64,000 bases of DNA. Source: Limnothrix sp. BL-A-16. GTDB taxonomy: Bacteria > Cyanobacteriota > Cyanobacteriia > CACIAM-69d. The position numbers were made by a program, and so were the translations under genes. The notes below the pieces were generated by a model, which was not told the origin of the DNA, ran no database searches, and saw nothing but the letters and a program-made list of their open reading frames with translations. Of this stretch, positions 9,876 to 33,453 are shown piece after piece (the first letter of the stretch is position 1; every line of letters starts with the position of its first letter). The DNA is taken from NCBI GenBank assembly GCA_041937175.2, contig CP166615.1, forward strand, positions 2,304,001-2,368,000, read 5' to 3'.

Positions 9876-10199
9876 ATGGTGCGCGATCGCCTGAGTTCCG
9901 TAAACACAATGCTGATCGATCTATTACAGTCCTTAATTTTGGCCGCCAGCTTGGGTTTTCTGATTCCCGTGGCGGGTTTGGGAATTTTGCTGCTGGCGAT
10001 CGGGGTTTGGGTTTACGTGCCGGTTTTGAATATGATTGCGGCCACGACATTGCAACACATCATTTTATTTTTAACTGTTTTTGGTAATGGCTCCCCCATT
10101 CAAGGCACGTTAATCATTGGGTTGGCCTGTAGCTTTGTTTGCGTTTTATTTGATGCGTTTGTGTTTTATCAATATCGCAACCTGCGCCGAGAAGGTTAG
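9876..10199 (+). CDS. Conserved cyanobacterial small membrane protein (start uncertain: 9777, 9876 or 9909)
   Basis: Hydrophobic ORF ending FLTVFGNGSP...LFDAFVFYQY, resembling a recurrent cyanobacterial hypothetical family. Confidence 0.7.
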   Translation: MVRDRLSSVNTMLIDLLQSLILAASLGFLIPVAGLGILLLAIGVWVYVPVLNMIAATTLQHIILFLTVFGNGSPIQGTLIIGLACSFVCVLFDAFVFYQYRNLRREG

Positions 10200-10350
10200 A
10201 GGTGTCGTCGTTTCGCCGAAAACCCTGATTCCGCCGCGAGCCGATCGTTGGGCAGCAAGGGGCTTAAGCCCCTTGTTACGACAGTTGAGGCAAGGAAAAT
10301 CAGCCGTTTCAGTTTGTTTTAGCTGGCACTCAGGAAATGACGACAGGCCC
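10199..10350. mobile_element. MITE-like element, family A
   Basis: Imperfect TIRs GAGGTGTCGTC...GACGACAGGCCC, TA on both sides, central palindrome CAAGGGGCTTAAGCCCCTTG (10256-10275); homologous copies at 35157, 48281 and 60519. Confidence 0.75.
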
Positions 10351-16570: not shown

Positions 16571-18058
16571 TTAGAAGCGATCGACCTCCTCGGGGAATCG
16601 CTGTGCTGGAATCTGAGCATTGGCCGCTTCACCACAGGTTTTGGGTGTAGGAAACACCTTATCAGGATTGGCTAAACGCAAAGGATCAAAGGCCGATCGC
16701 AACCATTGCATCGTCTCCAAATCCGCCGCTGAAAACATATCGGGCATATAGCAGCGTTTTTCCGCGCCAATGCCATGCTCGCCGGAAATCGTACCGCCCG
16801 CTTGCACACAGCGCTTGAGGATTTCGCCGCCCATTTCTTCCACCGCTTCCAGTTGTCCCGGCACGGACTTATCGTATAGAACCAATGGGTGTAAATTGCC
16901 ATCACCCGCATGAAATACATTGGCCACTTTGTAGCCATATTCCTCGCTCAGTTTGGCAATTTCTTGCAAAATCCAAACCAATTTGCCGCGCGGCACAACG
17001 CCATCTTGTACATAGTAATCAGGGCTGACATGGCCAGCAGCGGCAAAGGCAGACTTACGACCTTTCCAGAGTTTAAGCCGCTCTTGAGGATCCGTGGCGA
17101 TCGTAATATTGCGCGCTCCATTTTCGCGGCAAATTTCAGCGACGCGATCGCTATTGGCCGCCACTTCCACCGCCAAACCATCCAGCTCAACTAATAGAAT
17201 CGCCTCCGCATCTCGGGGATAACAATTGGTTTTGGCCACGTCCTCCACCGCATTAATGCTGAGGTTATCCATAATTTCCATCCCACCAGGAATAATCTTG
17301 GCGGCAATGATATCGGCCACGCTCTTGGCCGCTGCATCCATGCTGGTAAAATCCGCTAATAAAACAGCAATCTCATCGGCAGTTTTGAGGATTCTGAGCG
17401 TCACTTCCGTGGCAATTCCCAACGTGCCTTCAGAACCTACAAAAATTCCCGTTAAATCGTAACCAGGCATCTCGGGAACTGTGCTGCCTACCTCGACAAT
17501 TTCCCCATCGGGCAACACCAGTTTTAGACCCAAAACATGGTTGGTGGTTACGCCATATTTGAGGCAATGAACCCCGCCGGAATTCTCCGCCACATTCCCC
17601 CCGATCGAACAAATAATTTGACTCGATGGATCGGGCGCGTAATAAAATCCTGCACCGCTCACGGCCTGGGTCACCCAATTGTTAATCACCCCCGGTTGCA
17701 CCACCACTCGCTGATTATCCAAATCCACCTTTAGGATCTGTTTCATCAAGGCCGTGACAATCAGCACCGAATCCTCGATCGGGAGTGCGCCCCCCGAAAG
17801 TCCCGTGCCCGCTCCCCGCGCCACAAAGGGCACACGAAACCGATTGCAGAGCTTGACCGCCGCCGCCACTTGCTCCGTGGTACGCGGCAACACCACCAGC
17901 GCCGGCCGATGGCGATAGCTGGTTAATCCGTCGCATTCGTAGGTCAGCAGCTCATCCTTGCGACGAATCACGGCCCGATCGCCCAGCGCATTCACAAATT
18001 CCCGGGCGATCGCTTCCCAATCGGGGCGAGTGGCCGATAGCGGCGGTGCAAAAACCAT
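16571..18058 (-). CDS. glcD: Glycolate dehydrogenase FAD-linked subunit
   Basis: RGAGTGLSGG, PDPSSQ, GGVHCLKYG, HAGDGNLHP and GEHGIG motifs. Confidence 0.93.
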   Translation of the reverse strand: MVFAPPLSATRPDWEAIAREFVNALGDRAVIRRKDELLTYECDGLTSYRHRPALVVLPRTTEQVAAAVKLCNRFRVPFVARGAGTGLSGGALPIEDSVLIVTALMKQILKVDLDNQRVVVQPGVINNWVTQAVSGAGFYYAPDPSSQIICSIGGNVAENSGGVHCLKYGVTTNHVLGLKLVLPDGEIVEVGSTVPEMPGYDLTGIFVGSEGTLGIATEVTLRILKTADEIAVLLADFTSMDAAAKSVADIIAAKIIPGGMEIMDNLSINAVEDVAKTNCYPRDAEAILLVELDGLAVEVAANSDRVAEICRENGARNITIATDPQERLKLWKGRKSAFAAAGHVSPDYYVQDGVVPRGKLVWILQEIAKLSEEYGYKVANVFHAGDGNLHPLVLYDKSVPGQLEAVEEMGGEILKRCVQAGGTISGEHGIGAEKRCYMPDMFSAADLETMQWLRSAFDPLRLANPDKVFPTPKTCGEAANAQIPAQRFPEEVDRF

Positions 18059-18359
18059 GGTTGGTGATCTTTCTAAAACGGCAGCAAACCTTTACTTACT
18101 ATAACAATTTTGGTCTGCTTAATTTTAATTAGTCTTATACAAGCAAGCTATTAGTATGAAAAATATTGACAGTGGATCACGAGTTAGATTTAAGCACTTA
18201 GCTTGTCGATAATTAAGGAAGAACTATTGATTTTTACTTCAATATTTTTAGGCTGATTTGAGCTTGTCTGATGCTGATTAGAACGCTCAGGCAATCGTAC
18301 CTAGGGCGGCGTTGGGACGATCGGGCTAGAATTCTCGCAAGTGTGGCACGCGGGGCGAT

Positions 18360-21116
18360 GTGGGGCTTGTGATGGATTTTGGATCAATTCTGTCGCCCGA
18401 GAAATGGTGGCTGTTGCTGGTGACAGTGCTGTTGGGCATCAACACGGGGGTGATTTTGCCAGCTCAGTATGATTCATCGGCTCCTGCGCCTCGCAAGTGG
18501 TTGATCATTAGCACTTGGCTTTTGAACGGGATTTTGACAGGGTTGGCGGGGCTGTTGTTTTCACAGGAGAAGCCCAATTTTCAGCTTTGCCAAGGCTTGA
18601 CGATCGGGGGTGCGATCGTGGGTGTTGTGACGCTGGCGATCTTTTTTCGGGGCCCCAAGGCTGTAGTGACAGCGCACGATCGCCGATCGGAGTTGTTGGG
18701 GGTGCTGAAGGAGGAGTATGGCCAGCGGGAAACGGGGGCGGTGTTGGGCAAGTCGATCGCCCCTGTGCCCTTGGAGCCGCCGCGATCGATTCCCTTTCTT
18801 GGCAAGTTGTTCGGGTTTGGGCAGGAGCGATCACTATCGGGGCTGGATGACTTGCTCAAAACGTTTGATGAAGCCCAGCGGCAGGTGTTGATTTTGGGGG
18901 AGCCGGGGGCGGGCAAAACTACGCTGCTGGTGGCGTTGGCGAATCGGTTGGTGCAACGGGCGATCGAGGGCGATCGGGAACCGATTCCGGTGATTTTGGA
19001 GTTGTCGGCTTGGCGGGCGGGCGAGTCGCTGCCCGATTGGATTGTGGCGGAGGTGGCGGAGCGCTATCGGCCGCTGCCGGCCGCGCAGGTGGCGAACTGG
19101 CTGGCTACGGGGCAACTGCTGCCGCTGTTGGATGGGTTGGATGAGCTAAAGGATCGCCAGGGCGCGGCGATGGTGGCGATTAATGAGTGGGTGTCGCAGT
19201 CGCAAAAGTTGGCGGGGGTGGTGGTCTGTTGTCGGCGGGCGGAATATGACGCGGCGGTGGCGGCGGGCGACGCGCCTTTGGAAGAGCGGCTCAACAAGCG
19301 AATTGAGTTGCAGCCGTTGGATGAGGCAACGATTCGCACCCATTTACATGACTGCGAGCGGGATTTTTTATGGGAGAAAATTAAGCAAGATCGCGACGGG
19401 TTTCGCAAGTTGGCAGAGTCGCCGTTGTTGTTGGATTTGATGGTGGCGGCCTATGACAAACCGGGAAAATGGCAACGAGAAGCGCCGCGAAATCCTGATG
19501 ATCTAGCAGCCTATTATCTTGATTGTCGAGATCGTCTTTTAGATGATTATTTTGAAGTGCGGTTGCATAGTGTGCCGCATCCCAAATACAAACCAGCAGA
19601 TACGCGCCGTTATTTGGAATGGTTAGCGCGATTGATGCGCGATCGCAACCAAACGGAATTTTTGATTGAGTATATGCAGCCTGATTTGATTGAGGATCTA
19701 AAAGATCTGAAAGGCTATCGAGACTGCTTGGGATTTATAGCTGCAATACCTCTTGCTCTTGGCTCTTGGTTGCTTGGAGTAGTCCTCAATGAAGAATTTT
19801 ACGGACTCGTATTAGGTCTTGGGATTGGATTACAAGTATTTTGCTCGATGGAGATTCTCTATATTAGAATCTCAAAAACAATTTGGTCTGATATATCTCT
19901 GTTATTTCTTAGGGGACGAATCTTTATACTATTTATTTTTCAATCTTTCTTAAAAGGGGAGTTCATAGGAAATTATTTCTTTGCTCCCTTGCTCATCTTA
20001 ACTTTTTGTGGATATTTTTACGTATTATCTAGTGTTTTCAACATCGAAAACCAAAATCATCTTTCATATTTTCTCATATCAATTCCCTTTCTTTTTATAG
20101 TTGCAGTTGTTGCATTAGGTGCAATTCTTGAAAGTAATTCTTTATACTTAAAAAAGATTTCTTATAAAGAAACAAACGAAGGAACAATAGAGTCAAGAAA
20201 AAGTCTTGCTTTACTAACATTTTTATTTTTTCTACTGTTTTTTATAAATCAGTCAATTTCAACTATTTTTCAAAACAAGTTATCTTGGGAGGTGACTTTC
20301 TTTCATGATATTCCAATTGCATGTATTCTCTCAGGCTTAATGGGTTTTTATTACTTTGGTGGAATTCAGATATTTCAGAAAAAATTACTGTTCATATTTT
20401 TAAATAAAGCCAATCATATCCCCATTAACTATGATGATTTTCTTCAATATGCATCAGATAAGTTAAGTCTACTTAAGAAAAGTGGCGCATACTTTCGTTT
20501 CTATCATGAATTACTCAAGATTAATATGGCTAAGTTCAGTTCACCGGCTTGTCAGCTTGAAGCACCAAGAATATCTTTAAAGAGTAAGTTGATTGCTCTT
20601 CTTATTCAATTGATACTGATTTACTTGTTGATTTTCGCCTGCTTGAATATCAATAGTTATTTTGATTCAAGCAATTCATCATTTCTCAACAGTCTTGACC
20701 TAAAGAAAAGTGATATTGTTTTTCGTAATTCTATAATTAACTCAAGATTCAAAGTGCACAAGAACAGTCTAGTTCTAGTTAATTTTATGATCAAAACAGA
20801 GACTAATCACAGTCATTCCAATTTATCAATAGACCTCATTGGAAAAGTTGTTCAATTACCTGGAGATACAATCAATTTAGGTAATAAATACTTGTTTGCC
20901 ATAAACGGAAAGTCCATAAATGAGATTTATAAAGATGCCAAAACCTGGAGTTCACTATGTTTTGATGGAAAACTTAGAGTTCCTCAAGATTCTTACGTCG
21001 TTCTACTTCAGTGGGTAGACGAACCATGGCTGGTCTTAGTTAAAGAGAAAGACATCCAAACAAAAATTCTCTTTCGGATCTACCCGTTCGATCGCTTCGG
21101 GCCGATCGAGCCGTAA
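18360..21116 (+). CDS. Membrane-bound NACHT NTPase with multi-TM region and degenerate C-terminal S26 signal-peptidase-like domain
   Basis: Walker A GEPGAGKT, Walker B LPLLDGLDE, SPLLL helical motif, many TM helices, tail VVQLPGDTI...FRIYPFDRFG. Confidence 0.85.
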   Translation: MGLVMDFGSILSPEKWWLLLVTVLLGINTGVILPAQYDSSAPAPRKWLIISTWLLNGILTGLAGLLFSQEKPNFQLCQGLTIGGAIVGVVTLAIFFRGPKAVVTAHDRRSELLGVLKEEYGQRETGAVLGKSIAPVPLEPPRSIPFLGKLFGFGQERSLSGLDDLLKTFDEAQRQVLILGEPGAGKTTLLVALANRLVQRAIEGDREPIPVILELSAWRAGESLPDWIVAEVAERYRPLPAAQVANWLATGQLLPLLDGLDELKDRQGAAMVAINEWVSQSQKLAGVVVCCRRAEYDAAVAAGDAPLEERLNKRIELQPLDEATIRTHLHDCERDFLWEKIKQDRDGFRKLAESPLLLDLMVAAYDKPGKWQREAPRNPDDLAAYYLDCRDRLLDDYFEVRLHSVPHPKYKPADTRRYLEWLARLMRDRNQTEFLIEYMQPDLIEDLKDLKGYRDCLGFIAAIPLALGSWLLGVVLNEEFYGLVLGLGIGLQVFCSMEILYIRISKTIWSDISLLFLRGRIFILFIFQSFLKGEFIGNYFFAPLLILTFCGYFYVLSSVFNIENQNHLSYFLISIPFLFIVAVVALGAILESNSLYLKKISYKETNEGTIESRKSLALLTFLFFLLFFINQSISTIFQNKLSWEVTFFHDIPIACILSGLMGFYYFGGIQIFQKKLLFIFLNKANHIPINYDDFLQYASDKLSLLKKSGAYFRFYHELLKINMAKFSSPACQLEAPRISLKSKLIALLIQLILIYLLIFACLNINSYFDSSNSSFLNSLDLKKSDIVFRNSIINSRFKVHKNSLVLVNFMIKTETNHSHSNLSIDLIGKVVQLPGDTINLGNKYLFAINGKSINEIYKDAKTWSSLCFDGKLRVPQDSYVVLLQWVDEPWLVLVKEKDIQTKILFRIYPFDRFGPIEP

Positions 21117-21145
21117 AGCAGCGATCAGCCCGAAAGTTTTGAACC

Positions 21146-23086
21146 CTAGGATTCGGCTAGCTCCGATAATTCAAGCCAACGTTCAGTGCCCTGATCAATT
21201 TGGTGACTGAGATCCGCCAGCTTTTGCGATAATTTCTCGACCTCGCTATAGCCGCTAGGGGGATTTTCATAGAGGCGCTTTTCAATCGTCGCTTTCTCCT
21301 CTTCCCACTGGGGCAAATGGGTTTCCAGGTGCTCAAGTTCCCGCTTTTCCTTGTAGGACAATTTGCGCGATCGCCCCTTAGATGAATTGCCTTGATCCGG
21401 CTCCGTCTTAGTTGCAGCCTCAGCCTTCTTCTCAGCCGATCGCCCGTTTTTCTCCGGAGCCTCACTCGCCACATCGGGCGATCGCAAATCCAAATAAACC
21501 GAATAGTTACCGGGATATTGGCGAATCTGGCCGGCTTGCTCAAAGGCGAAGATTTTCTCCACCGTGCGATCGAGAAAATAGCGATCGTGCGACACCACAA
21601 TCACACAGCCGTTGAATTCTTCTAGATATTCCTCCAACACCGCTAAGGTCTGCACATCTACATCGTTGGTCGGCTCGTCCAAAATCAACACATTCGGCGC
21701 TTCGAGCAACACCTTCAGCAGAAATAAGCGCCGCCGTTCGCCCCCCGAAAGTTTGTTGAGAGGCGCATATTGTTGATCAGGTGGAAACAGGAACCGTTCC
21801 AACATTTGGGCCGCCGTGATGATTTGTCCATCGGCGGTTTTCACCAGTTCCGCCGTTTCCTTCAGATAATTCAACACCCGTATTTCGCCCTTATCGGACA
21901 AATCATCCGAGTGCTGATCAAAATAGCCAATCTGAATCGTGCTGCCCCGATCGACCTGGCCCGCCGTCGGTTCCAACTTGCCCATGATCAGGTTCATCAG
22001 GGTTGATTTACCCACGCCGTTACCACCGATGATTCCCACCCGATCGTCCGGTAGAAATTGGTAGGTAAAATCGCGAATCAGCACCCGATCGCCCACTTGA
22101 TAAGTCAAATTCTCTAGCTCGATCACCTTCTTGCCAATCCGCCGGCCCGCCGTGGCAATTTCTACCTTGCCTTGGTTGGCTTTGAACTCCGTTTCGCGCA
22201 TGTCCTGGATCCGATCGATCCGGGCTTTCTGCTTCGTGCTCCGCGCCTTTGGCCCCTTCTTCAACCATTCCAATTCTCGCCGCAACACCCCTTGAAACTT
22301 GCGCTGGCGGCTATTTTCAGCGGTTTCCGCCTCGGCTTTTTTCTCCAGGTAATAGCCATAGTTGCCCGCATAGCTAAACAGATCGCCGCGATCGAGTTCC
22401 AAGATCCGATTGGTCACCCGATCGAGAAAATAGCGATCGTGCGTCACCAACAACAACGCCCCGCGAAATTGTTGGCGTAAATAGTCTTGCAACCAGTTCA
22501 CCGAATCCGCATCCAAGTGGTTGGTTGGCTCATCCATTAACAACAAATCCGGCTGGGCCAACAGCGCCGCTGCCAGCGCAATTCGCTTGCGATAGCCCCC
22601 GGAAAGTGTCCCCACCTTCGCTTCAAAATCCTCAATTCCTAACTGGGACAGCACAATTTTCGCCTGGGTTTCCAGTTCCCAAGCGCCCGCCGCTGCCATC
22701 TTGTCGCCCAAGCTAGCCAACTGAGCCATCAACCGATCGAACTCGGGCCCCGTGGTGTGGCCCAGCCGGTGGGATAGATCCTCGTATTCCCGCACCAGGG
22801 CCATTTGCTCGCCACTGTCGGCAAACACCTGCTCCAGCACCGTGCGATCGGGGTCGAGCGGCGGATCTTGGGGCAAATAGACCAATCGATAGTTAGGGTT
22901 CACCAGCCGATCGCCCCGGTCGATCGGCTCCAGCCCCGCCAGCATCTTCAGCAGCGTGGACTTGCCCGAACCATTGGTGCCAATCAAGCCAATTTTGTCC
23001 GTTGGCTCGATGCTAAAGGTTCCATCCCGCAGAATTTCTTTGATTCCAAAATCCTTGTGGGCATTCTTCAGAGACAGCAGACTCAT
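21146..23086 (-). CDS. ABC-F family ATPase (Uup-like)
   Basis: Two ABC cassettes (GTNGSGKS, GGNGVGKS, LSGG, DEPTN), no TM helices, C-terminal KLSYKEKREL coiled coil. Confidence 0.93.
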   Translation of the reverse strand: MSLLSLKNAHKDFGIKEILRDGTFSIEPTDKIGLIGTNGSGKSTLLKMLAGLEPIDRGDRLVNPNYRLVYLPQDPPLDPDRTVLEQVFADSGEQMALVREYEDLSHRLGHTTGPEFDRLMAQLASLGDKMAAAGAWELETQAKIVLSQLGIEDFEAKVGTLSGGYRKRIALAAALLAQPDLLLMDEPTNHLDADSVNWLQDYLRQQFRGALLLVTHDRYFLDRVTNRILELDRGDLFSYAGNYGYYLEKKAEAETAENSRQRKFQGVLRRELEWLKKGPKARSTKQKARIDRIQDMRETEFKANQGKVEIATAGRRIGKKVIELENLTYQVGDRVLIRDFTYQFLPDDRVGIIGGNGVGKSTLMNLIMGKLEPTAGQVDRGSTIQIGYFDQHSDDLSDKGEIRVLNYLKETAELVKTADGQIITAAQMLERFLFPPDQQYAPLNKLSGGERRRLFLLKVLLEAPNVLILDEPTNDVDVQTLAVLEEYLEEFNGCVIVVSHDRYFLDRTVEKIFAFEQAGQIRQYPGNYSVYLDLRSPDVASEAPEKNGRSAEKKAEAATKTEPDQGNSSKGRSRKLSYKEKRELEHLETHLPQWEEEKATIEKRLYENPPSGYSEVEKLSQKLADLSHQIDQGTERWLELSELAES

Positions 23087-23194
23087 GCGATCGGGCAGGG
23101 GCTAAACACTACTGTCTATGATTCCACGGCCCGCCCCGATCTCCCCCGTTACCTTTGCTACGATCGACCTGTTTCCCAAACACCGACTAGCCCC

Positions 23195-23617
23195 ATGACC
23201 GCCGCCCTCAGCCCCGCCGATCGCCACAATTACCAAACCCTGCTGGCCGACTATGGCCCCGGTCTGCGGGCGATCGATGCCCTTGATCAACACGATGGCG
23301 ACCTGATCAGCGCCGTCGAAACCCTGTGGAATCAGTCAGAAACTCCCAGCACTTTTGGCAAGGGTCAAAAACTGTGGGAAACCCTGTTAAAAGTCTTGCG
23401 CAAGGAACTCTGTGGCAACGAAGGGGTGCGCGCCCAGTTTCAGGAATACACCAAAAATCCCGGCAGTGCGCCCCTGTTGACGGGCTTGATTGTGTCAGTC
23501 ACCACGGCGGCGGGTTTACCGATCGACCCAGCGATTTCCACAATTGTGGTGTTGTATTTGCTCAAAATCGGTCTGAATGTGTTTTGTGAATACACCGAAC
23601 CCAAACCAGAATCATGA
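23195..23617 (+). CDS. Cyanobacterial hypothetical protein (140 aa) with C-terminal hydrophobic hairpin
   Basis: 3' part of ORF 22805-23617 not overlapping the ABC-F gene; ATG at 23195; stop overlaps the next start (ATGA). Confidence 0.78.
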   Translation: MTAALSPADRHNYQTLLADYGPGLRAIDALDQHDGDLISAVETLWNQSETPSTFGKGQKLWETLLKVLRKELCGNEGVRAQFQEYTKNPGSAPLLTGLIVSVTTAAGLPIDPAISTIVVLYLLKIGLNVFCEYTEPKPES

Positions 23618-23973
23618 TCAGTCCATTACTCATCACTGATTCCATCACCCCCGCAACCTGGGAATTGCGATCGCGCCTGATCTGTCATCGTGAGCAAATC
23701 CAGGCGATCGCCGCTGACTACGGCATTAGTCACATGCGCATTTTCGGTTCCGTGGCCCGAGGAGAAGCAACCGCCGAAAGTGATATCGATTTTTTGGTGG
23801 AGATGGAACCCGATCGCAGTTTGCTCGATCGAATTGGCTGCATTCAGGATCTATCGGACTTGTTAAATTGCCCGATTGATGTTGTCACTCTCAAAAATAT
23901 CCGTGAGGAATGGCGCGATCGCATTCAACACGAGGCAATTTCACTGTGTGAAGTCCAACACGATCAAATTTGA
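23614..23973 (+). CDS. Minimal nucleotidyltransferase (MNT/MntA-like antitoxin family)
   Basis: IFGSVARGEATAESDIDFLV (GSx10DxD), L..LL...IDVV, EAI near the C-terminus. Confidence 0.9.
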   Translation: MISPLLITDSITPATWELRSRLICHREQIQAIAADYGISHMRIFGSVARGEATAESDIDFLVEMEPDRSLLDRIGCIQDLSDLLNCPIDVVTLKNIREEWRDRIQHEAISLCEVQHDQI

Positions 23974-23984
23974 TTTTGCTGGGG

Positions 23985-24350
23985 TTAATCGATCGCGTAG
24001 CCTGTATATTGTCGAACGGTGGGAGCATGGAAAGCGAGAACAATGTGATCTTTCGGAACTCCCAACTCTGTTAACTCATTGGCAATTCCACCTTCAATGC
24101 CATCATAGTGAATCCAGATTTTTTGGTTCCGAATTTCGGCATGAACTAGGCAACCATGCACTCTCTGATTCTCTTCCCAACCTTCTTGCATGAGCAGGAA
24201 ATGATTGCAATCTTGGCTCACCACTAAGTAGGTCACTACATTTCCATAGCGATAGGGCAACTTGGCATAGTCACCGAGAATTTTCTCTAGGAGCGATCGC
24301 CACTGGTTTAGGTTTTGTCCTTCTTGAGTGTCGAATGCTTCCATACTCAT
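23985..24350 (-). CDS. xisI: XisI-family protein
   Basis: GW...RVHGCLVH.EI...KIWIHYDGIEGGIANEL..LGVPKDHIVLAFH.P..RQYTGYA. Confidence 0.92.
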   Translation of the reverse strand: MSMEAFDTQEGQNLNQWRSLLEKILGDYAKLPYRYGNVVTYLVVSQDCNHFLLMQEGWEENQRVHGCLVHAEIRNQKIWIHYDGIEGGIANELTELGVPKDHIVLAFHAPTVRQYTGYAID

Positions 24351-24375
24351 GATTTGATAATAGTTCGGTAGTCCA

Positions 24376-24490
24376 GTAGGTTGGGTTGAGCCTCGCGAAA
24401 CCCAACGCAAGATCTGGGCTATGCGATCAATTACTTTCAAAACATAGCGTATTGATCGTGTTGGGTTTCGCACGGCTCAACCCAACCTAC
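24376..24490. repeat. GTAG-type REP doublet (REPIN-like long inverted repeat)
   Basis: GTAGGTTGGGTTGAGCC..GCGAAACCCAAC (24376-24406) inverted at 24460-24490, ending CCTAC. Confidence 0.8.
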
Positions 24491-24600
24491 TGCTCTCAGT
24501 TAACGGTAGCTTCTGCGATCGCTGGTGGTTGATTTCGACATCCCGATCGCCTTGGTGAGGTTGTTAGGATGGGGCGAGTGATGAACCGATCGCTCCACCT

Positions 24601-27600
24601 ATGCCGACCATTCAGATTCGCGAAGTTGCTGCCGTTGTCGATGGGTTCACTGCTGAGGTGACGATCGCCCAGGATCTCAACACGAGCCGCGCCTATCCCG
24701 TCACGTTGCGGAATCCGTTTCAGCACAACGAAGAAGCGGATCTGGAATTCTTCTTTGAAGAGTGGTATCAGTTCCCGACGCTCGATCGGGAGCGGGCCGA
24801 TCGCGCCCGCCTGGCGATCGCTCAATATGGCCAAGAGCTGTTCGAGCAACTGTTGAAGGCGAATTCCGATGCCTACGCGGACTATCGGGACTTGCGGCGA
24901 TCGCAGGCCTTTGAGCGGGGCACGGTGCTGATCGAAATCATCGGCTCGCCGGAGTTTCAGGGGTGGCATTGGGAAGCCCTGCGCGATCCCGATTTGCCGG
25001 AACCGCTGTCACTGATGACCCCGATCGTCCGGCGCGACCCCCGGCGATCGGTTGCCAATCCGGCGCGGGTTGAGCCGTCTGGCTGGCTGAATTTGTTGGT
25101 GGTGACGGCGCGGCCCGGTTGGAGCCAGGATGTGAACTACCGGACGATTTCCCGGCCGTTGGTGGAGGCGATCGCCAATGCTCAGTTGCCCGTGAAGGTG
25201 GAGCTATTGCGGCCCGGCACTTGGGAAGCGCTCGATCGCCACCTGCAAGATGTCGGGCCGGGGTTCTATCACGCGGTGCATTTCGATTTGCATGGGTCGG
25301 TGCTGACTTACAAAGAAGCTAGCAAACTGCTCGATCGCCCCGCCCAAGCCAGCGGCCAAACCTTTCGGCGCGGTTATGGTTTGGGGGATTTGCCTGAATA
25401 TGACGGCTATCGGGCATTTCTGAGCTTTGAAGGAGAAGCGGCGGGCCAGTCAATTTTGGTGGAAGCGGCGGAGGTGGCAAATCTGCTGAAGACCCGGCAA
25501 ATTCCTCTTTGCATTTTGAATGCTTGCCAGTCTGCCAAGCAGATTAGCGGTGGCGAGGGGCCGGCGGCGGAAACCAGCCTGGGGGCCAAGCTGCTGGAGG
25601 CGGGGATGCAGGCGATCGTGGCCATGCGCTATTCGGTGATGGTGCGGGCGGCGGAACTGATGATGACGCGGTTCTATCAGGCGCTGTTTACCGAGCAGCC
25701 GGTGATGGAGGCGATTCGGTTGGGGCGGCGGGAGCTGTGGCAAACCAAAACCCGCCCCGGCCGGTTCAACATGCCGATCGAGCTGGAGGATTGGCTGTTG
25801 CCGGTGGTCTACAGTGGCGCGACGGTGAATTTGAATTTGCGGCCCCTGACGGCCGACGAAGAGGCGGCCCGGTGGACGGCGGAGGCCGATCGCGATCGCT
25901 TTGAGCCGCCGATCTATGGCTTTGTGGGACGGGACACGGACATTTTGGAGCTGGAGCGGCGGTTGTTGCAGCCCGATCGCAACGCTCTGTTGTTGCAGGG
26001 GATGGGCGGCACGGGCAAAACCACGCTGCTGCGCTATTTGCGCGACTGGTGGCAGCGGACGGGGCTGATTGAGCGATCGTTCTATTTTGGCTATGACGAG
26101 CGGGCCCACAACCTGGAGCAAATCGCCGCCAGCATTTTTCAGCAGCTTGATCCCGAGGGGTGGTTGCGGTTCCAGTCGTTCCCCTTGGCGGCGCGGTTGA
26201 CCAAGCTGACCCAACTGTTGCGATCGCGCCGCTATGCCTTGATTCTGGACAATTTGGAATCGGTGACGGCGGCGGCCCTGTCGATTCCCAACAGCCTGCC
26301 GGAGTCGGAGCAGCGGGCCTTGGCCCAATGGTTGCGCGGGTTGGTGGGGGGCAAAACCCTGATTTTGTTGGGGTCGCGGGGGGCGGAATCCTGGCTGGAG
26401 CCGGTCTATGGAGCCAATCGGCTGGGGTTGCGGGGGTTGGATCGGGATGCCCGCACGGAGCTGGCCCAAAAAATTCTGGAGCGACAGGTGGGCGACTCGC
26501 GCCGCATCGCTCAGATCAAGGATGATCCGGCCTTTGGGCAGTTGATGAAGCTGTTGGATGGCTATCCATTGGCGATGGAGGTGGTGTTGGGGAATCTGAA
26601 GCGCCAAACCCCCAGCGAAATTGTGGCGGGGCTGGCGGCGGCGGATGTGAATCTGGACAATCCGCAGGCCCAGGGCGACAAAACCCAAAGCATCATTGCT
26701 TGCATTGACTATTCCCACGGGGCGCTGTCGGCAGCGGCCCAGCAGGCATTGCTCTGTTTGGCTCCCTTCAGTGGGTTTATTAATTGCGATGGCAATTGCT
26801 TGGAACAGTATGCGGCGCGGTTGGCGGAGCAGCCGGCCTTAGCGGCTTGGTTGGGGGATTCGGGGGCAGAAATTTTGGCGGCGGCGGTGCAGGAGGCGGT
26901 GGATTGGGGGCTGTTGTCGCCGATTTCGCCGGAAGTACCGATCTTACTGACCATTCAGCCGACGTTGCCCTATTTCCTGAAGCTGAAGTTAGCGGAACGG
27001 GACAAAGAAACCCAAGCGGCGATTCGCAATGCCTTTAAGCAGCACTACATCGGCTTGGCGAATTACTACAACAATCGATTGCTGAAATCAAAGGAGCCAG
27101 ATCAGCGGCAATTGGGGATCTTTTTTGTGCGGCAGGAGTATGAAAATTGCTATGCAGCGCTGCAAATTTGCCTAGAGAAATTCGAGACGGCAGATATTTT
27201 CTTTTGCCTATTCCAATATTTGTACGTGACCCAAGATTGGCCGACTGCCAAGGCTTTGGCGGAACAAGTTCGGGCGGCCCATGCCCAATATCCTCCCGAA
27301 ATTCGTCAGGGCAAAATCGGCTTGGAAATTACGATGTCGCTCGATCGCCTGGCCTCTTGCCAATTGGAACTCAAGGACTATGCAGGCGCTCGGGCGGCTT
27401 ATTTGGAAGAACTCCAACAACTCGATCAACTACAAGGCGTTGACCGTCGCCAAATCTTAGCCAGCCAAGCCAGCACCTACCACCAGTTGGGAAGGGTTGC
27501 CCAGGGCTTGCGGGAGTATGCCGAAGCCCGCCGCTGCTACCAACAGGCCCTCGAAATCAAAATCGAGTTCGGCGAGTCTCCAGAGGAGAGGCTTCGCCAA

Positions 27601-28581
27601 CGCTACGAGCAAGCTGGCACCTACCACCAGTTGGGAATCGTTGCCCAGGAATTGCGGGAGTTTGCCGAAGCCCGCCGCTGCTACCAACAGGCCCTCGAAA
27701 TCAAAATCGAGTTCGGCGATCGCTACAGCCAAGCCAGCACCTATGGTCAGTTGGGAAGTGTGGCCCAGGAATTACGGGAGTTTGCCGAAGCCCGCCGCTG
27801 CTACCAACAGGCCCTCGAAATCAAAATCGAGTTCGGCGATCGCTACAGCCAAGCCAGCACCTACCACCAGTTGGGAATCGTCGCCCAGGAATTGCGGGAG
27901 TTTGCCGAAGCCCGCCGCTGCTACCAACAGGCCCTCGAAATCAAAATCGAGTTCGGCGATCGCTACAGCCAAGCCAGCACCTACCACCAGTTGGGAATCG
28001 TCGCCCAGGAATTGCGGGAGTTTGCCGAAGCCCGCCGCTGCTACCAACAGTCCCTCGAAATCAACATCGAGTTTGGCGATCGTTACGAGCAAGCTGACAC
28101 CTACCACCAGTTGGGAATCGTTGCCCAGGAATTGCGGGAGTTTGCCGAAGCCCGCCGCTGCTACCAACAGTCCCTCGAAATCAACATCGAGTTTGGCGAT
28201 CGTTACGAGCAAGCTGACACCTACCACCAGTTGGGAAATATTGCCTATCTACTGCGGGAGTTTGCCGCAGCCCGCCGCTGCTACCAACAGGCCCTCGAAA
28301 TCAACATCGAGTTCGGCGATTCCTATAGCCAAGCCAGCACATTCAATCAGCTAGGGTTGCTGTCTCAAGCAACGGAAAATTTCCCCAAAGCTCTCGATTA
28401 TTTCCTGCAAGCGCTGCAAATTTTTGCCCAATTTGAAGACACCCACCACGCCCAAGTTGTCCTCAGAAACATCGCCAACCTTTACCAACAAACCCAAGAC
28501 CCCAACATCCTCACCGCCGCCGCCGAAATCCTCGGTTGCACCCCCGACGACCTCGCCACCGCCTTCACCCAACAGCCGTAG
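24601..28581 (+). CDS. NLR-like protein: CHAT (caspase-like) protease, STAND/NB-ARC-like NTPase and TPR repeats
   Basis: CHAT dyad VHFDLHG and ILNACQS; Walker A GMGGTGKT; Walker B LILDNLE; GYPLAM; 40-aa TPR array. Confidence 0.92.
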   Translation: MPTIQIREVAAVVDGFTAEVTIAQDLNTSRAYPVTLRNPFQHNEEADLEFFFEEWYQFPTLDRERADRARLAIAQYGQELFEQLLKANSDAYADYRDLRRSQAFERGTVLIEIIGSPEFQGWHWEALRDPDLPEPLSLMTPIVRRDPRRSVANPARVEPSGWLNLLVVTARPGWSQDVNYRTISRPLVEAIANAQLPVKVELLRPGTWEALDRHLQDVGPGFYHAVHFDLHGSVLTYKEASKLLDRPAQASGQTFRRGYGLGDLPEYDGYRAFLSFEGEAAGQSILVEAAEVANLLKTRQIPLCILNACQSAKQISGGEGPAAETSLGAKLLEAGMQAIVAMRYSVMVRAAELMMTRFYQALFTEQPVMEAIRLGRRELWQTKTRPGRFNMPIELEDWLLPVVYSGATVNLNLRPLTADEEAARWTAEADRDRFEPPIYGFVGRDTDILELERRLLQPDRNALLLQGMGGTGKTTLLRYLRDWWQRTGLIERSFYFGYDERAHNLEQIAASIFQQLDPEGWLRFQSFPLAARLTKLTQLLRSRRYALILDNLESVTAAALSIPNSLPESEQRALAQWLRGLVGGKTLILLGSRGAESWLEPVYGANRLGLRGLDRDARTELAQKILERQVGDSRRIAQIKDDPAFGQLMKLLDGYPLAMEVVLGNLKRQTPSEIVAGLAAADVNLDNPQAQGDKTQSIIACIDYSHGALSAAAQQALLCLAPFSGFINCDGNCLEQYAARLAEQPALAAWLGDSGAEILAAAVQEAVDWGLLSPISPEVPILLTIQPTLPYFLKLKLAERDKETQAAIRNAFKQHYIGLANYYNNRLLKSKEPDQRQLGIFFVRQEYENCYAALQICLEKFETADIFFCLFQYLYVTQDWPTAKALAEQVRAAHAQYPPEIRQGKIGLEITMSLDRLASCQLELKDYAGARAAYLEELQQLDQLQGVDRRQILASQASTYHQLGRVAQGLREYAEARRCYQQALEIKIEFGESPEERLRQRYEQAGTYHQLGIVAQELREFAEARRCYQQALEIKIEFGDRYSQASTYGQLGSVAQELREFAEARRCYQQALEIKIEFGDRYSQASTYHQLGIVAQELREFAEARRCYQQALEIKIEFGDRYSQASTYHQLGIVAQELREFAEARRCYQQSLEINIEFGDRYEQADTYHQLGIVAQELREFAEARRCYQQSLEINIEFGDRYEQADTYHQLGNIAYLLREFAAARRCYQQALEINIEFGDSYSQASTFNQLGLLSQATENFPKALDYFLQALQIFAQFEDTHHAQVVLRNIANLYQQTQDPNILTAAAEILGCTPDDLATAFTQQP
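27466..28350 (+). repeat. Intragenic tandem array of 120-bp TPR-coding units (7 full plus 1 partial)
   Basis: Units start at 27466, 27610, 27730, 27850, 27970, 28090, 28210 and 28330; the first is 144 bp because of a 24-nt insert. Confidence 0.97.
27575..27598. mobile_element. 24-nt SDR-like mini-insertion at a HIP1 position
   Basis: GCG-AGTCTCCAGAGGAGAGGCTTCGCC-AACGC stands where sister repeats have GCG-ATCGC; internal TCTCC/GGAGA hairpin. Confidence 0.7.
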
Positions 28582-28638
28582 GGTGCATGGGAGAACACTT
28601 GGCCATTAACAATCCTTTCCCTACACCTCCCATGCACC
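28578..28638. repeat. GTAG-type REP-like palindrome
   Basis: GTAG-GGTGCATGGGAG...CTCCCATGCACC; partial third arm GGTGCGTGGGAG near 28694. Confidence 0.6.
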
Positions 28639-28726
28639 GCAATCGATCGCGCAAAAACAACAATCCTCGATCGATTGAATAACCACAACCCTCGGTGCGT
28701 GGGAGAGCAAATCAACCTTATGGCAA

Positions 28727-29947
28727 TCACGGGCGATCAACCCCAAACCCTTCCGCTTTCAGCATAGCTAAAGTTGCAATTGCTGCTTGGGTTTCTGCTT
28801 CCTTGATGGTCTTCCCTATCCCTTGGCCATACACTCGGTTCTGAAGCTTGACTTCTACAGTCCAAGGCTCCGCCCCTGGAACTGGACAGTAATCTACCAT
28901 GCCATATTTACTTGCATTTTCTGGCTGTTGTAGAAATTCTTGAAGAGCATTTTTAGGATGTCGGGCCGTTGCACCTTCGTAGCCCAGTTTATCGATCACT
29001 TGATCAAGCTTTGGCCAGAAGAATGCCTGAACTGCTGCCAAACCAGAATCAAGATAGTAGGCTCCAATCAATGCCTCAAAGGCATTAGCAAGAACTGAAT
29101 TCTTTTGACTAATTTTCTGATCACGCTTAAGCCCATTTCCTAGTCTCAGACAATCACCCAGATCCAATTGACTCGCAAAAAGCTCGAGTTGCGTATTTTC
29201 CACAATTCGAGATTTAATTTGAGTCAATTCTCCTTCGGTTAGGTACGGGTGTTTATTATGAATATACTCGGCCACTACCAATCCCAAAACGGAATCGCCT
29301 AAAAACTCCAGCCGTTCATTGTCATCGCCACTGCTTGGGTGTTCATTTTTATAAGACCTATGGGTTAAAGCCTGTTTCAGGAGGCTGAGATTCTGGAACG
29401 GAATTTGAGAAATGAGGCGATCGCACTGCTCTTGAAACTGTCGGTCTGCCTGATTGTTAGGGTTTAGACCCCATTGCTGCGCTTGGTTTTGATGACTCAA
29501 GGCTAGCAAAGCTTCATTTTGCTGGGTGACTACCTCTTCCAATAGAGGCGATCCGATCGCCTGTAGTAACCGACGAATGCTATCGAGCGATCGATAAACA
29601 TCTGCGGTGGGAAATTCTGATTCATGGGCCCACTGGTTACGAATTTCCTGAAGTTCATTGACTAGAACTTTGTCGCTTTTGCTTAATCGGTCTTTAAAGA
29701 CCTTGGTGTAATGCTTATCTAGAATTGTTAGTAAATTGGCTACATCTTCACTAATGATTTTGATGGGAGAATACTTTTTTAAAATTGGCTGGGCTGTTCG
29801 TAGCTTGGGTAAGAAATGTAGGGATTTTGTAGCCCAATCATCCCCATATTCTGTCTGCATGGCTTCCTGAATGAAAGGAAACAATCCCTGGCGCAAAAGC
29901 TCTAGGCCACGGGTAATCGTTTCCTTTCCCCAGTTTTGGTTTGACAT
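28727..29947 (-). CDS. Swt1-like HEPN domain fused to ribonuclease III and a dsRBD
   Basis: ELQEIRNQWAH (Rx4H), ALTHRSY, NERLEFLGD, ANAFEALIGA, dsRBD HPKNALQE...G.GKTIKEAETQAA. Confidence 0.88.
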   Translation of the reverse strand: MSNQNWGKETITRGLELLRQGLFPFIQEAMQTEYGDDWATKSLHFLPKLRTAQPILKKYSPIKIISEDVANLLTILDKHYTKVFKDRLSKSDKVLVNELQEIRNQWAHESEFPTADVYRSLDSIRRLLQAIGSPLLEEVVTQQNEALLALSHQNQAQQWGLNPNNQADRQFQEQCDRLISQIPFQNLSLLKQALTHRSYKNEHPSSGDDNERLEFLGDSVLGLVVAEYIHNKHPYLTEGELTQIKSRIVENTQLELFASQLDLGDCLRLGNGLKRDQKISQKNSVLANAFEALIGAYYLDSGLAAVQAFFWPKLDQVIDKLGYEGATARHPKNALQEFLQQPENASKYGMVDYCPVPGAEPWTVEVKLQNRVYGQGIGKTIKEAETQAAIATLAMLKAEGFGVDRP

Positions 29948-30005
29948 GATGTGAATTCACAATGACTAATTTCATGGTAGTCAGCAATTCACATTTCGTG
30001 GGAAC

Positions 30006-31142
30006 CTAGCGGCGACGATCGCCCCCAAATCGTCCAACTCGGCCGGTGGGTTTGCCCAGGTTGGCGCGGAGTTGGCCACAGGCTGCATCCGACTCCAGGC
30101 CCCGGGTGCGGCGGACACTGACGGCGACGCGGCGATCGTCCAGGGTTTGCATGAAGTCCCGCACGCGCATCGGGTCAGGGCGCTGGTAGTCTACCTCCGC
30201 GATCGGGTTGTAGGGAATCAGGTTGACGTGAGCTTGGAACCCGCGCAGCAACTCCGCTAGCTCGGCGGCACAGTCGCGGCTGTCGTTGACCCCCGCCAAC
30301 AGGATGTATTCAAAGGTGACGCGGCGGCCGGTTTCGGCGGCATAGTCGCGGCAGTCCTCGATCAGCTCCTCGATCGGGTATTGGGCGGCGCTGGGAACGA
30401 TCGACTCACGGATTTCCTGGTTGGGCGCGTGGAGGCTGACAGCCAGGGTGGCTTGCAACCGTTCGTTGGCGAGCTGCCGAATCCGGCCGGGAATACCGAC
30501 AGTGGAAATGGTGATGTAGCGCTTGCCGATGCCGATGTCTTGGTTGAGCGATCGCGTTGCACTCAGGACGGCGGCGGGGTTATGTAGCGGTTCGCCCATG
30601 CCCATAAACACCACATTGCTGACCCGGCGATCGAAGTCCTCTTGGACAGTCAGCACCTGATCCAAAATTTCCGATCGCGATAGGTTGCGCACAAAGCCGC
30701 CTTTGCCCGTGGCGCAAAAGTCGCAGGCCATGGCACAGCCCACTTGGGAGGACACACAAACCGTCAGCCGATCGCGGGTGGGAATGCCGACGGTTTCCAC
30801 GATCTGCCCGTCGGCCATTTTCAGCAGAAATTTTACGGTTCCGTCATGGCTCTCGGAGCGGTGGTGCAGCTCGGAGCGGCCGATCGGAATGTCGGCGGCC
30901 GCTTCCCGCCAGTTTTTGGGGAAAACGGTGATATCCATCAGCGATCGGGCCCCGCGTTCGTAGATCCATTGGTGGAGCTGCTTGGCACGGTAGGCGGGCT
31001 GTCCCTGGTCTTTCACCCATTGGGTGAGTTCCGTGAGGGAGCCACCCAACAGCGGCGGCAGGGGCTGACGATCGGGACGGGACTGCAAAATCTGCGAATC
31101 GGTTTGGGCAGCGGTGTTCAGGGCGATTGGGGCGGGAGCCAT
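30006..31142 (-). CDS. rlmN: 23S rRNA A2503/tRNA A37 C2-methyltransferase (radical SAM)
   Basis: [22 protein letters not shown] and AACGQL motifs. Confidence 0.97.
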
Positions 31143-31362
31143 GGTCAAGTCTCAAGACAAAGGGCCGAACAAACCCCAAGACACCATCGCCACCAGCCAA
31201 GCGGGCGATCGGGCATGGGATTTGGGAATTAGGCGGATCAACGGCGGGCGATCGTGAAGCGATTCAGTAGTCGATTAGGGGTCGATCGAAGCCTGTATTA
31301 GCTTAGATCGTAGCGACTCTGATCGATGATTGCCCCGTTGTTTGTTTCTTGCCCGTCTCTCC

Positions 31363-33453
31363 ATGACCCTCGAAGCCGAAAACGCCCGCCTCCAGCAGCG
31401 CGTGCATGAGCTGGAACAGCAACTGGCCCAATGGCGCGATCGCCCACCCGCCGGGCCGCCACCCAAGCCCTATGGCATCAACTTGGATCGGAAACGGGAA
31501 CCCACGGAAGTGGATCCCTTTAACTCCGAAGGGCTGTTTCGGGCCTATGTGGAAACCGCCAATGACATGGTGTATGCGGTGGATTTGCTGGGCCGGCTCG
31601 TGTTTATTAATCCCTACGGAGAGCGACTGTTGGGGATTGAACCGGGTGAATGGCGCGGCCGCCCCTACATGGACTTTGTGGCTCCGGCCTTTCAGGAACC
31701 CACGGGCCAGGCCTTTGCCAACCTGTTGCACACGGGCGAGCTAATGGATTTTGAGTTCGCGCTGCTCGATCGCGCCGGTCGAGAAATTCACATGCAGGTG
31801 AACGGGCGCTTGCTCTATGCGGATGAGGAGCTGATTGGTGGTTTGGGTATTGCGCGGGATATCACCGATCGCAAGCAGGCAGAACAGCAGGTACAGATGT
31901 TTGTGCGGGCCCTGGAGTCAACCCACGACAGCACCGCGATCGCGGACTTGCAGGGGGGCTTCATTTATGCAAACCCGGCGACCGATCGGGTTTTTGGTTG
32001 GACCACCGGGCCCAATCGCCCCCAAAATGCAGCGGCTTTTTATCCAGAGGCAGGCACAAAACAGGTGCATTGGCTGGTGCAACAGGCGATCGACGGTGGT
32101 TGGAGCGGGGAAGTCATTTGCCAGCGCCAAGGGGGCGATCGGTTCCCTGCGTTGGTCTCGGTGGGGCCCGTCCCCGACGAGCAGGGCCGGCCCGTGGCCT
32201 TTTCGATCGTCACCCGCGACATTAGTGATCAAAAACAAACCCAAGCGGAATTGGCGGCCAAAAACCTGGAATTGGAACGGGCCAGCCAATTGAAATCCGC
32301 CTTTTTGGCCAATATGTCCCATGAGTTGCGCACACCGCTGACGGCTATTTTGGGCTTTTCTTCTCTGCTAAAACAGCAGCTTTATGGGCCGCTGAACGAA
32401 AAACAGATGGTCTATATCGAACAAATTCGCAAGAGCGGTGATCATCTGCTCAGTTTGATTAATGACGTGTTGGATTTATCCAAAATTGAGGCGGGCCAAA
32501 TTGAACTAGCGATCGAGGCGATCGATGTGCCCACCCTCTGCGATTCGGCGTTGGCCCTGGTCAGCCAGCAGGCAGCCGATCGGGATATTCGGATTCGCAA
32601 ACGGATTCCCAAACGGTTGCAACCCTTGATGGCCGATGAGGTGCGCGTGCGCCAAATGCTGTTGAACCTGCTCAGTAATGCGGTCAAGTTTTCCCATGAG
32701 GGGGGCGAAATTGGCCTTGAGGCGATCGAGCGAGGCGGCTACGTGCATTTTTGCGTGTGGGATCATGGTATCGGGATCCCCGAAGAAGCCCGCTCCGTCA
32801 TGTTCCAGCCCTTTCATCAACTGGATAACTCCCTTTCTCGGCGGCACCAGGGCACGGGGTTGGGCCTGTCCCTCACCCGGCAGTTAGCGGAACTACACGG
32901 CGGCTCTGTGGACTTTGAATCCAAGCTGGGCCAAGGCAGCACCTTCACGATTCGGTTGCCCTTAACCTTTGTGCCGCCCGGTCGATCGCCCGCGCCGGCC
33001 ATTCAACCCGGCGCATCGGCGGCGCGGGTGATGGCGGCGGAACAGGCCCGGCCACCACAAATTTTGGTTGTTGAAGACGATTCGACCAATGCCAAGTTGC
33101 TGCAAGACCTGTTGAGCAGTTGGGGTTGTGGCGTGGCGATCGCCCCGGACGGTTGGCGAGCGATCGACTGGCTAGACAGTCACCCGGTGGATTTGGTGTT
33201 GCTGGATATCCAACTGCCGGACATGGACGGGCTGGCGGTCTTGCAGCAAATCCGCAGTGATGAACGTTGGCAGGATTTGCCCGTGGTGGCGGCCACGGCC
33301 CTGGCTATGGAGCACGATCGCCAGCGCTGTTTGGCCGCCGGAATGCAGGGCTATCTCAGCAAACCGCTGGATCATCAAGCCTTGCGGGCGATCGTGGCCG
33401 AATTCACCGGCTATCATACCCCTGGCCAAGCCAGAGATCACGCAAGCAATTAG
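31363..33453 (+). CDS. Soluble hybrid histidine kinase (2 PAS, HisKA, HATPase, receiver)
   Basis: RDITDRK PAC ends, SHELRTPL, NAVKF, GTGLGL, receiver VEDD...LLDIQLP...SKP. Confidence 0.93.
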   Translation: MTLEAENARLQQRVHELEQQLAQWRDRPPAGPPPKPYGINLDRKREPTEVDPFNSEGLFRAYVETANDMVYAVDLLGRLVFINPYGERLLGIEPGEWRGRPYMDFVAPAFQEPTGQAFANLLHTGELMDFEFALLDRAGREIHMQVNGRLLYADEELIGGLGIARDITDRKQAEQQVQMFVRALESTHDSTAIADLQGGFIYANPATDRVFGWTTGPNRPQNAAAFYPEAGTKQVHWLVQQAIDGGWSGEVICQRQGGDRFPALVSVGPVPDEQGRPVAFSIVTRDISDQKQTQAELAAKNLELERASQLKSAFLANMSHELRTPLTAILGFSSLLKQQLYGPLNEKQMVYIEQIRKSGDHLLSLINDVLDLSKIEAGQIELAIEAIDVPTLCDSALALVSQQAADRDIRIRKRIPKRLQPLMADEVRVRQMLLNLLSNAVKFSHEGGEIGLEAIERGGYVHFCVWDHGIGIPEEARSVMFQPFHQLDNSLSRRHQGTGLGLSLTRQLAELHGGSVDFESKLGQGSTFTIRLPLTFVPPGRSPAPAIQPGASAARVMAAEQARPPQILVVEDDSTNAKLLQDLLSSWGCGVAIAPDGWRAIDWLDSHPVDLVLLDIQLPDMDGLAVLQQIRSDERWQDLPVVAATALAMEHDRQRCLAAGMQGYLSKPLDHQALRAIVAEFTGYHTPGQARDHASN

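Follow-up and report, generated by a model that had tools for sequence, protein, structure and literature searches.

Modules that combine a protease with a small effector are coming to be recognized as a dominant logic in the immunity of prokaryotes, and few effector families have been worked out, these being gasdermin, EACC1, Pepco, MBL and alpha/beta-hydrolase. One described system of this kind is the two-gene EACC1-caspase conflict system, which has a conserved small component (Kaur et al., 2020, PMC7159879), and in which the caspase-like Avs12 is reported to cleave EACC1, producing a fragment that forms pores (Evans et al., 2025, preprint, PMC12642450). Here we present a locus that offers one more candidate for such an effector family, within a stretch of 64,000 nucleotides from the cyanobacterium Limnothrix sp. 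BL-A-16 (contig CP166615.1, positions 2,304,001 to 2,368,000; the whole stretch is called the window below), in which a 140-aa protein of an unnamed family is encoded upstream of a 1326-aa protein made of a CHAT protease, a STAND NTPase and a TPR array. The CHAT-STAND-TPR architecture has long been known in cyanobacteria, and the kind of system, in which an NLR-like protease is accompanied by a small constant partner, is already known too; what appears to be new is the small-protein family and its pairing with the CHAT gene, the two genes being, in our judgment, very probably linked functionally. A preliminary description of the same DNA had proposed a different association, an undescribed immune module of the CHAT protease and a HEPN-RNase III nuclease encoded by the facing gene, and this interpretation is only partly supported. 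Taken as a whole, the explanation that we consider probable is that the interval is a mosaic and not one module, that its functional unit is the pair of the 140-aa protein and the CHAT-STAND-TPR protein, and that the HEPN-RNase III, an additional RNase III paralog, is independent of this pair and part of the synteny block on the rlmN side, not of the CHAT module.

The CHAT protein follows the plan of the Avs and other bacterial NLR-like proteins, with an effector at the N-terminus (here the caspase-like CHAT protease), then the STAND NTPase, and a TPR sensor at the C-terminus (residues ~932-1302), and its Walker A and B motifs and protease dyad are intact. The caspase-type dyad, H231-G232 and C309 (in LNACQSGK), is invariant in alignments of 17 orthologs, as are the Walker A sequence GMGGTGKTT (467-475) and D550. 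Unlike the named Avs proteins, it has no Avs-specific match in PADLOC or NCBIfam, and its role in defense is a predicted one. Curated bNACHT and other defense STAND models in these two collections were not matched either, PADLOC returning TPR models plus a weak match to SAVED_CHAT (0.003), and NCBIfam returning TPR-type partial matches only, all under the cut-offs. A profile of the CHAT domain had zero matches at E ≤ 1 among the PDB sequences.

As in the EACC1-caspase system, a small non-enzymatic constant protein stands here beside a caspase-superfamily protease fused to sensors of the STAND/Avs type, and that system is likewise enriched in multicellular bacteria, cyanobacteria included. However, EACC1 itself (PF19953) was detected neither in 15 homologs of the small protein at E ≤ 10 nor in the whole Limnothrix genome. 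EACC1 is described as an alpha+beta protein with one transmembrane helix, whereas the small protein is predicted to be all-alpha, with eight helices and a C-terminal hydrophobic hairpin. Gene order and orientation, moreover, are variable here, and part of the family pairs with NTPase and TPR proteins devoid of CHAT. The bacterial gasdermin-protease systems differ in that no gasdermin family is found next to this locus, the small protein being all-alpha. Another example for comparison is presented by the Bell-domain/BASS pairs (Dyrka et al., 2020), in which, as here, a small helical putative death executor is found beside a cyanobacterial NB-ARC/NACHT-TPR protein. The N-terminus of the NLR-like protein here, however, is a protease and not an amyloid motif, and a comparison by hhalign of the alignments of the small protein and of the CHAT protein (A1 and A2, respectively) recovered no domain or motif common to the two (probability 0.3%), although very short motifs could escape it.

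The evidence for the linkage comes from neighborhoods of the two genes in a phylum sample of 401 genomes, in which two clades of CHAT proteins were considered. Orthologs that are 45-59% identical over 900 aa (clade 1; 20 loci fetched, plus that of the same-genus genome G002, 21 in all) occur sporadically across many cyanobacterial families, and clade 2 comprises 12 loci with CHAT matches of ~32% identity (11 at 32-34%, plus G386 at 30%). In 14 of the 21 clade-1 loci outside the window the small gene and the CHAT gene are 0.07-3.5 kb apart, the small gene being either upstream on the same strand or in divergent or convergent orientation, with products 33-94% identical to the window protein in alignment A1, and in all 12 clade-2 loci it is located directly downstream on the same strand, at distances from an overlap to a gap of 1.1 kb. 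When the search started from the small protein, the A1 profile gave ~40 strong matches over the 401 genomes, and a scan of a species collection (one genome per species) gave 240 relatives, of which the best 80 loci were kept, all of them cyanobacterial and some from genomes already in the phylum sample. Among these best 80 loci, 25 have a CHAT-STAND-TPR gene of the A2 type within 3.4 kb of the small gene (4 with the small gene followed by CHAT, 10 with CHAT followed by the small gene, 11 convergent), and in another 20 the only such neighbor is an A2-like TPR protein, within 1.9 kb. The genes flanking the pair vary between families, suggesting that the pair moves as a unit, and the neighborhood clusters of the CHAT loci contain no recurrent neighbor other than the small gene. 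It is because orientations, flanking genes and host families all vary that we take the linkage to be real, and a dedicated partner of the CHAT protease, other than the HEPN-RNase III, probably exists. Judged by mean sequence distance, the small protein is the constant, more conserved member of the pair, as is the small component of the EACC1-caspase system: the distance for the small protein is 0.51 both within and between the partner clades, and that for the CHAT protein is 0.41 within and 0.72 between them. The distances of the two proteins are correlated (Mantel r 0.37, reached in 0 of 2000 permutations).

The 140-aa protein has no match in Pfam at E ≤ 0.01 and no NCBIfam family, and the profile of its family produced only chance-level rows against the PDB sequences (best 0.039). 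In 1.84 billion protein representatives, 167 members were found at E ≤ 0.001 and 79 at E ≤ 1e-10, nearly all of them stand-alone proteins of 120-160 aa. In alignment A1, residues R69, C73, G74, P109, Y121, K124, G126, C131 and Y133 are invariant, and the best-conserved stretch is GLPIDPAIATVIVLYILKIGLNIFCxYTEP. The hydrophobic C-terminal helical hairpin noted in the preliminary description is real (residues ~92-131), the 15-residue Kyte-Doolittle mean being 1.5-2.0 over residues ~91-130. The AlphaFold2 model is an eight-helix all-alpha bundle with a predicted local distance difference test score (pLDDT) of 85.6 and a predicted template modeling score (pTM) of 0.83, for which Foldseek found no match in the PDB at E ≤ 0.001 and the highest Z reached in a VIA-align comparison with 48,161 chains was 4.1, with none at 5 or above. 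The candidate effector family thus combines a confident predicted fold that has no solved match with a clear, testable partner whose catalytic dyad is intact. The PADLOC model PDC-M35B gives weak, near full-length and colinear matches (4.4e-4 for the window protein; 8 of 10 homologs, best 1.1e-6), and its companion PDC-M35A matches none of the proteins scanned, CHAT proteins included; no publication was found under the name PDC-M35. Nor was a description of the small family found in the papers searched, although Kaur et al. (2020) and Evans et al. (2025) could list it in their supplementary tables. In the Protein Atlas, the small protein falls near clusters of 'hypothetical protein' only, the nearest named one being DUF6887, with a score of 0.80 that provides a lead only.

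Some further observations concern the outskirts of this family. A DUF6887 domain is present at the N-terminus of two distant members, P0214 and P0231 (1e-14 and 2.9e-16; proteins of 227-249 aa). Four other candidates (P0232, P0241, P0242 and P0262) are multi-GAF kinases whose matches fall on repeated stretches, and these are regarded as spurious, while the UniRef label 'DUF3944 domain-containing' on one cluster member was not reproduced in Pfam scans. A distant subfamily of ~126 aa is widespread in the profile scan of the 401 genomes, with weaker matches. In L086, L087, L090 and L091 (centre ~9850-10270) it is found in the row kaiA-kaiB-kaiC, OEP (TolC-like), small-like gene, 167-aa gene and YlmH-S4, a context that looks like housekeeping, and in L092 its gene is convergent with that of a 1412-aa TPR...CHAT protein. 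In 26 of 35 loci examined (Nostocales loci among L109-L179, e.g., L110:5983-7721), the small gene is divergent from a gene for a ~119-aa glyoxalase-like protein and one for a ~430-aa A118-type large serine recombinase, an arrangement that may point to an integrative or excisable element as the carrier of the module.

By analogy with the described systems, the pair could be pictured to function as follows. The TPR array would sense a trigger that is probably a phage protein; the STAND NTPase would then oligomerise, and the CHAT protease would turn active. Once active, the protease would process the small protein and so release the hydrophobic hairpin buried at its C-terminus, and the freed hairpin would damage the membrane, resulting in abortive infection or programmed death. 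What the present analysis itself supplies is the linkage, the intact motifs, the predicted fold and the conservation pattern; the sensing, the cleavage and the action on the membrane are inferred from the EACC1-KrAvs12, Pepco-Avs4 and gasdermin systems. We regard it as quite plausible, if short of probable, that the small protein is such a cleavage-activated membrane effector. The preliminary description had named it as one of two possible substrates of the protease, and that suggestion has gained from the small gene being a conserved neighbor of this CHAT-STAND-TPR family across many cyanobacterial families, with cleavage itself still proposed by analogy. More tentatively, the 140-aa protein may be the founding member of a family of small all-alpha death effectors, a constant component of cyanobacterial NLR-like systems, whose hairpin would be freed by CHAT cleavage or, with the CHAT-less NTPase-TPR partners, by another route. 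If so, one conserved executor would be wired to at least three sensor architectures, with a distant paralog in the kaiABC-linked housekeeping cluster.

A number of observations weigh against this scheme. The AlphaFold2 model buries the hydrophobic helices within a globular bundle. Three CHAT loci, L054, L055 and L057, are fully flanked and yet lack the small gene, in genomes with no match to the core family (further clade-1 loci without it, L058, L069, L071 and L072, are cut by contig ends). Likewise, 35 of the best 80 small genes have no A2-like neighbor; in 14 of these, one flank is shorter than 2.8 kb, and the other 21 are fully flanked. Of these 21, 18 show a single Nostocales arrangement, in which the small gene is next to genes for a glyoxalase-like protein and a large serine recombinase of the A118 type, and they may descend from one event, for example a single loss. 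In at least 12 loci the small gene is paired with a 447-aa P-loop NTPase (KAP/AAA matches), whose ORF (open reading frame) overlaps that of a 524-644-aa TPR protein by ~40 nt, with no CHAT recognized by profile (L073, L075, L077, L079 and 8 of 14 TPR-only loci examined), so that activation there cannot be by this protease. Among 13 further strong small-family loci, 4 are beside NTPase and TPR genes, 3 are at contig ends and 6 have no such neighbor. The clade-1 genes are often convergent or divergent, and thus are not co-transcribed, and many loci are from related genomes, so that the counts overstate the number of independent events. A complex prediction for the CHAT domain (A2 residues 1-430) with the small protein scored 0.01, 'no answer', and provides no evidence either way.

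A model that depends strictly on the protease is weakened by the partners that lack CHAT and by the small genes that stand alone, and both keep alive the idea of the small protein as a regulator or guardee. In this scenario, which we hold to be rather unlikely, it would be an inhibitor or antitoxin-like brake on the NLR-like protein, a chaperone, or a TPR-bound guarded bait, and the CHAT protease would kill by cutting host or phage proteins. The TPR arrays of the CHAT-less partners match the A2 profile strongly (domain E to 7.4e-99, in L077), making TPR the common denominator of the partners of the small gene, the clade-2 genes are tightly coupled, including gaps of 14-15 bp or an overlap, as is the case for stoichiometric complexes, and effector-less caspase-like defense proteases are reported (PMC12642450). 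Strong conservation and a hydrophobic hairpin, however, suit an executor better than a rapidly co-evolving inhibitor, the TPR repeats are of the near-consensus KLC/NPHP3 type, for which a high score against a profile need not reflect any specific relationship, and the small gene persists at loci with no partner nearby. Distinctly less likely is that all of the genes, the small ORF and the CHAT gene included, are independent passengers of a variable island, and that their adjacency reflects shared residence or inherited synteny. Such a view does account for the variation of the NACHT-S26, MNT, XisH and HEPN-RNase III genes, each of which differs in occurrence between G000, G001 and G002, for the dispersed repeats that flank the genes, and for small genes that are often without CHAT and, in Nostocales, reside beside the serine recombinase. 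It fits poorly with the adjacency of the two genes in CHAT clades that are ~70% different from each other (14 of 21 loci in one, 12 of 12 in the other), with varied flanks and orientations and in many families, and with no other neighbor recurring. The suggestion of independent arrivals at an insertion hotspot, also raised in the preliminary description, holds for the HEPN-RNase III, MNT, XisI and NACHT genes.

Least likely by far is the association originally proposed, in which the CHAT protease and the facing HEPN-RNase III would make up a single immune module and the nuclease, perhaps checked by the MNT, would serve as substrate or effector, an idea that is largely refuted by the distribution of the genes. 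The two genes are convergent, with a gap of 145 bp, the nuclease has, as had been noted, a Q/N-rich interdomain linker (residues ~142-175 of the translation), and both of its motifs are intact, the HEPN motif Rx4H (R103..H108) and the RNase III motif ERLEFLGD (211-218). In L038, a HEPN-RNase III gene is preceded, at a distance of 129 bp and on the same strand, by a gene for a 1577-aa protein combining TPS (two-partner secretion) and CHAT domains (L038:4841-9574), and in L042 an MNT homolog is found 0.5 kb away. Against this, the homologs do not co-occur in the neighborhood comparison of cyanobacterial loci. L038 presents the only close CHAT neighbor in 21 other fusion loci, CHAT of another architecture being found near one more (CHAT-FHA, 8 kb away, in L039), and L042 is the only one of the 21 with an MNT homolog nearby. 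The regions up to 10 kb from the 21 fusions contain 139 ORFs of at least 250 aa, and no STAND NTPase or CHAT-STAND-TPR gene is present among them (70 scanned at E ≤ 1e-5, 64 at E ≤ 1e-8, a stricter threshold that could miss a weak CHAT, 4 in a separate scan, and rlmN by tblastn), none of the 21 thus being accompanied by CHAT-STAND-TPR. Conversely, when 133 loci of CHAT or small-protein genes were scanned at E ≤ 1e-5, neither HEPN nor RNase III was matched in any of them. Genomes of the phylum sample with both families are G032 and G338, where they are on different contigs, and G263, where they are ~529 kb apart. The neighbors of the fusions are mostly housekeeping genes (those for ValRS, IleRS, MurE, aconitase, glycogen synthase and GcpE).

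Genomes of the same genus point in the same direction, as G001 and G002 keep one gene each. In G001, rlmN is followed by a 77%-identical HEPN-RNase III gene and there is no CHAT ortholog (best match 2.1e-5, with the 900-aa N-terminal query), while G002 possesses the row of ABC-F, small ORF, XisI, XisH and an 86%-identical CHAT gene and has no HEPN match. An unrelated 465-aa gene follows the CHAT gene in G002, and rlmN is found there on another contig, beside an AAA_15/AAA_21 (OLD/ABC-type) ATPase (L032:353-1537) in the slot held here by the HEPN-RNase III, suggesting that the rlmN flank is itself a variable site. Homology between the window and G002 stops at ~28603, within the repeat of the convergent gap, and the junction is thus a synteny breakpoint. 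The window appears, from this comparison, to join an ABC-F-side block (small ORF and CHAT) to an rlmN-side block (HEPN-RNase III), and a rearrangement at the dispersed repeat would have placed the nuclease next to the CHAT gene. The lesson is that facing nuclease- or protease-like genes in a variable region need not form a system.

The nuclease is of a described type. A HEPN-RNase III-dsRBD fusion from a Lyngbya cyanobacterium was presented as a 'two-headed RNase' (Anantharaman et al., 2013, Biology Direct, PMC3710099), and the window protein has exactly that architecture. To the 2013 fusion we add 19 other genomes of the phylum sample that carry HEPN-RNase III, one of them apparently degenerate. 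Matches similar to HEPN_Swt1 occur in 36 of the 401 genomes, and 20 loci with ORFs of 333-473 aa were fetched; RNase III directly follows HEPN in 19 of these (L040 looks degenerate), which, with G001 and G016, makes up the 21 fusions. The window protein scores 199.6 bits with TIGR02191 (cut-off 166.25), and in the Limnothrix genome (4.56 Mb, 2 contigs) RNase III is represented by three paralogs and HEPN_Swt1 by a single domain. In five loci (L034, L036, L045, L047 and L048) a second, ordinary RNase III gene is found in tandem ~0.05-0.1 kb downstream of the fusion gene, in a block kept with glycogen synthase and trypsin-like peptidases. Most other cyanobacterial HEPN_Swt1 matches are in proteins of ~1030-1180 aa. 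In L014 (G014:C1:158000-177000), a 357-aa HEPN protein is encoded beside a SNF2/NOV_C helicase and a DUF1156 methyltransferase, which fits the restriction-modification-linked context of the Ava_2192 type described in 2013 (PMC3710099).

The MNT and XisI domains are clear (for MNT, PADLOC PDC-S09 8.2e-36, and the MntA model at 53.3 bits versus a cut-off of 60), but, compared to the MNT-HepT (type VII) and XisH-XisI systems, both genes are orphan and variable between genomes of the same genus. Their orphan state, as first described, is borne out: no HepT (DUF86) is present next to the MNT, whose neighbors on the two sides, the small ORF and XisI, leave no space for a further gene, and tblastn with the XisH of G002, where XisH-XisI occupies the same place, finds nothing at positions 23000-25000 of the window. 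By blastn/tblastn, the window differs from G002 by an insertion of 330 bp holding the MNT and by lack of the 411-bp XisH. The stop codon of the 140-aa ORF overlaps the MNT start by 4 nt (ATGA), and the two had been described as coupled, an arrangement that must be seen as a local accident, as G002 is without the MNT. Elsewhere, the spacer between the small gene and CHAT holds Uma2, DUF433, DUF4926/DUF6883, ParE, HicA/HicB-like, MNT, MNT-HepT (in L053) or XisH/XisI genes. The MNT and XisI are best read as selfish insertions of the toxin-antitoxin type, which would have landed in the spacer between the pair as similar genes did in other genomes. Both dispersed repeats of the locus are multi-copy in the Limnothrix genome and in G001 and G002. 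The one between XisI and CHAT consists of two 50-nt arms that are 80% complementary and match about ten other sites in its own genome, and the one in the convergent gap (~145 bp) has 5 other copies in its own genome and many in G001 and G002.

The features of the locus are collected in Table 1. All of the genes named in the preliminary description were recovered in the ORF listing and in the Pfam, NCBIfam and PADLOC scans, including a second STAND-class (NACHT) gene ~2 kb upstream, and its statement that gasdermin and Csx30-like genes are not recognizable agrees with the Pfam matches of the ORFs at positions 17000-33000, which include neither family. A scan of the locus for promoters and terminators gave results below chance. 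Four sequencing runs share only 6-21% of sampled words, and one of them is recorded as RNA.

Table 1. Genes and repeats of the small-protein/CHAT locus and its surroundings (positions within the window).
Feature	Position	Strand	Matches and remarks
NACHT protein with C-terminal Peptidase_S26/signal-peptidase-like region, 918 aa	18360-21116	+	2.1 kb upstream
ABC-F gene	21146-23086	-	ORF listing, Pfam
140-aa ORF	23195-23617	+	unnamed family; without Pfam or NCBIfam family
MNT nucleotidyltransferase	23614-23973	+	NTP_transf_2 1.4e-13
XisI	23985-24350	-	Pfam 2.6e-35
Palindromic dispersed repeat	24374-24492	no strand	between XisI and CHAT gene
CHAT-STAND-TPR protein, 1326 aa	24601-28581	+	CHAT 2.3e-18, NACHT/NB-ARC/AAA_16, TPR repeats
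Dispersed repeat in convergent intergenic gap	28576-28720	no strand	at synteny breakpoint
HEPN-RNase III-dsRBD protein, 406 aa	28727-29947	-	HEPN_Swt1 1e-30, RNase III 2.6e-33, dsrm 1.6e-9
rlmN	30006-31148	-	ORF listing, Pfam

The NACHT-S26 gene is absent in G002 between the FAD oxidase and ABC-F genes. Its product has a weak, partial match to the antiphage EruA model (3.5e-10, far under the cut-off), and the GC content falls from ~0.59 to 0.30-0.33 within the single ORF, which suggests a recent chimera.

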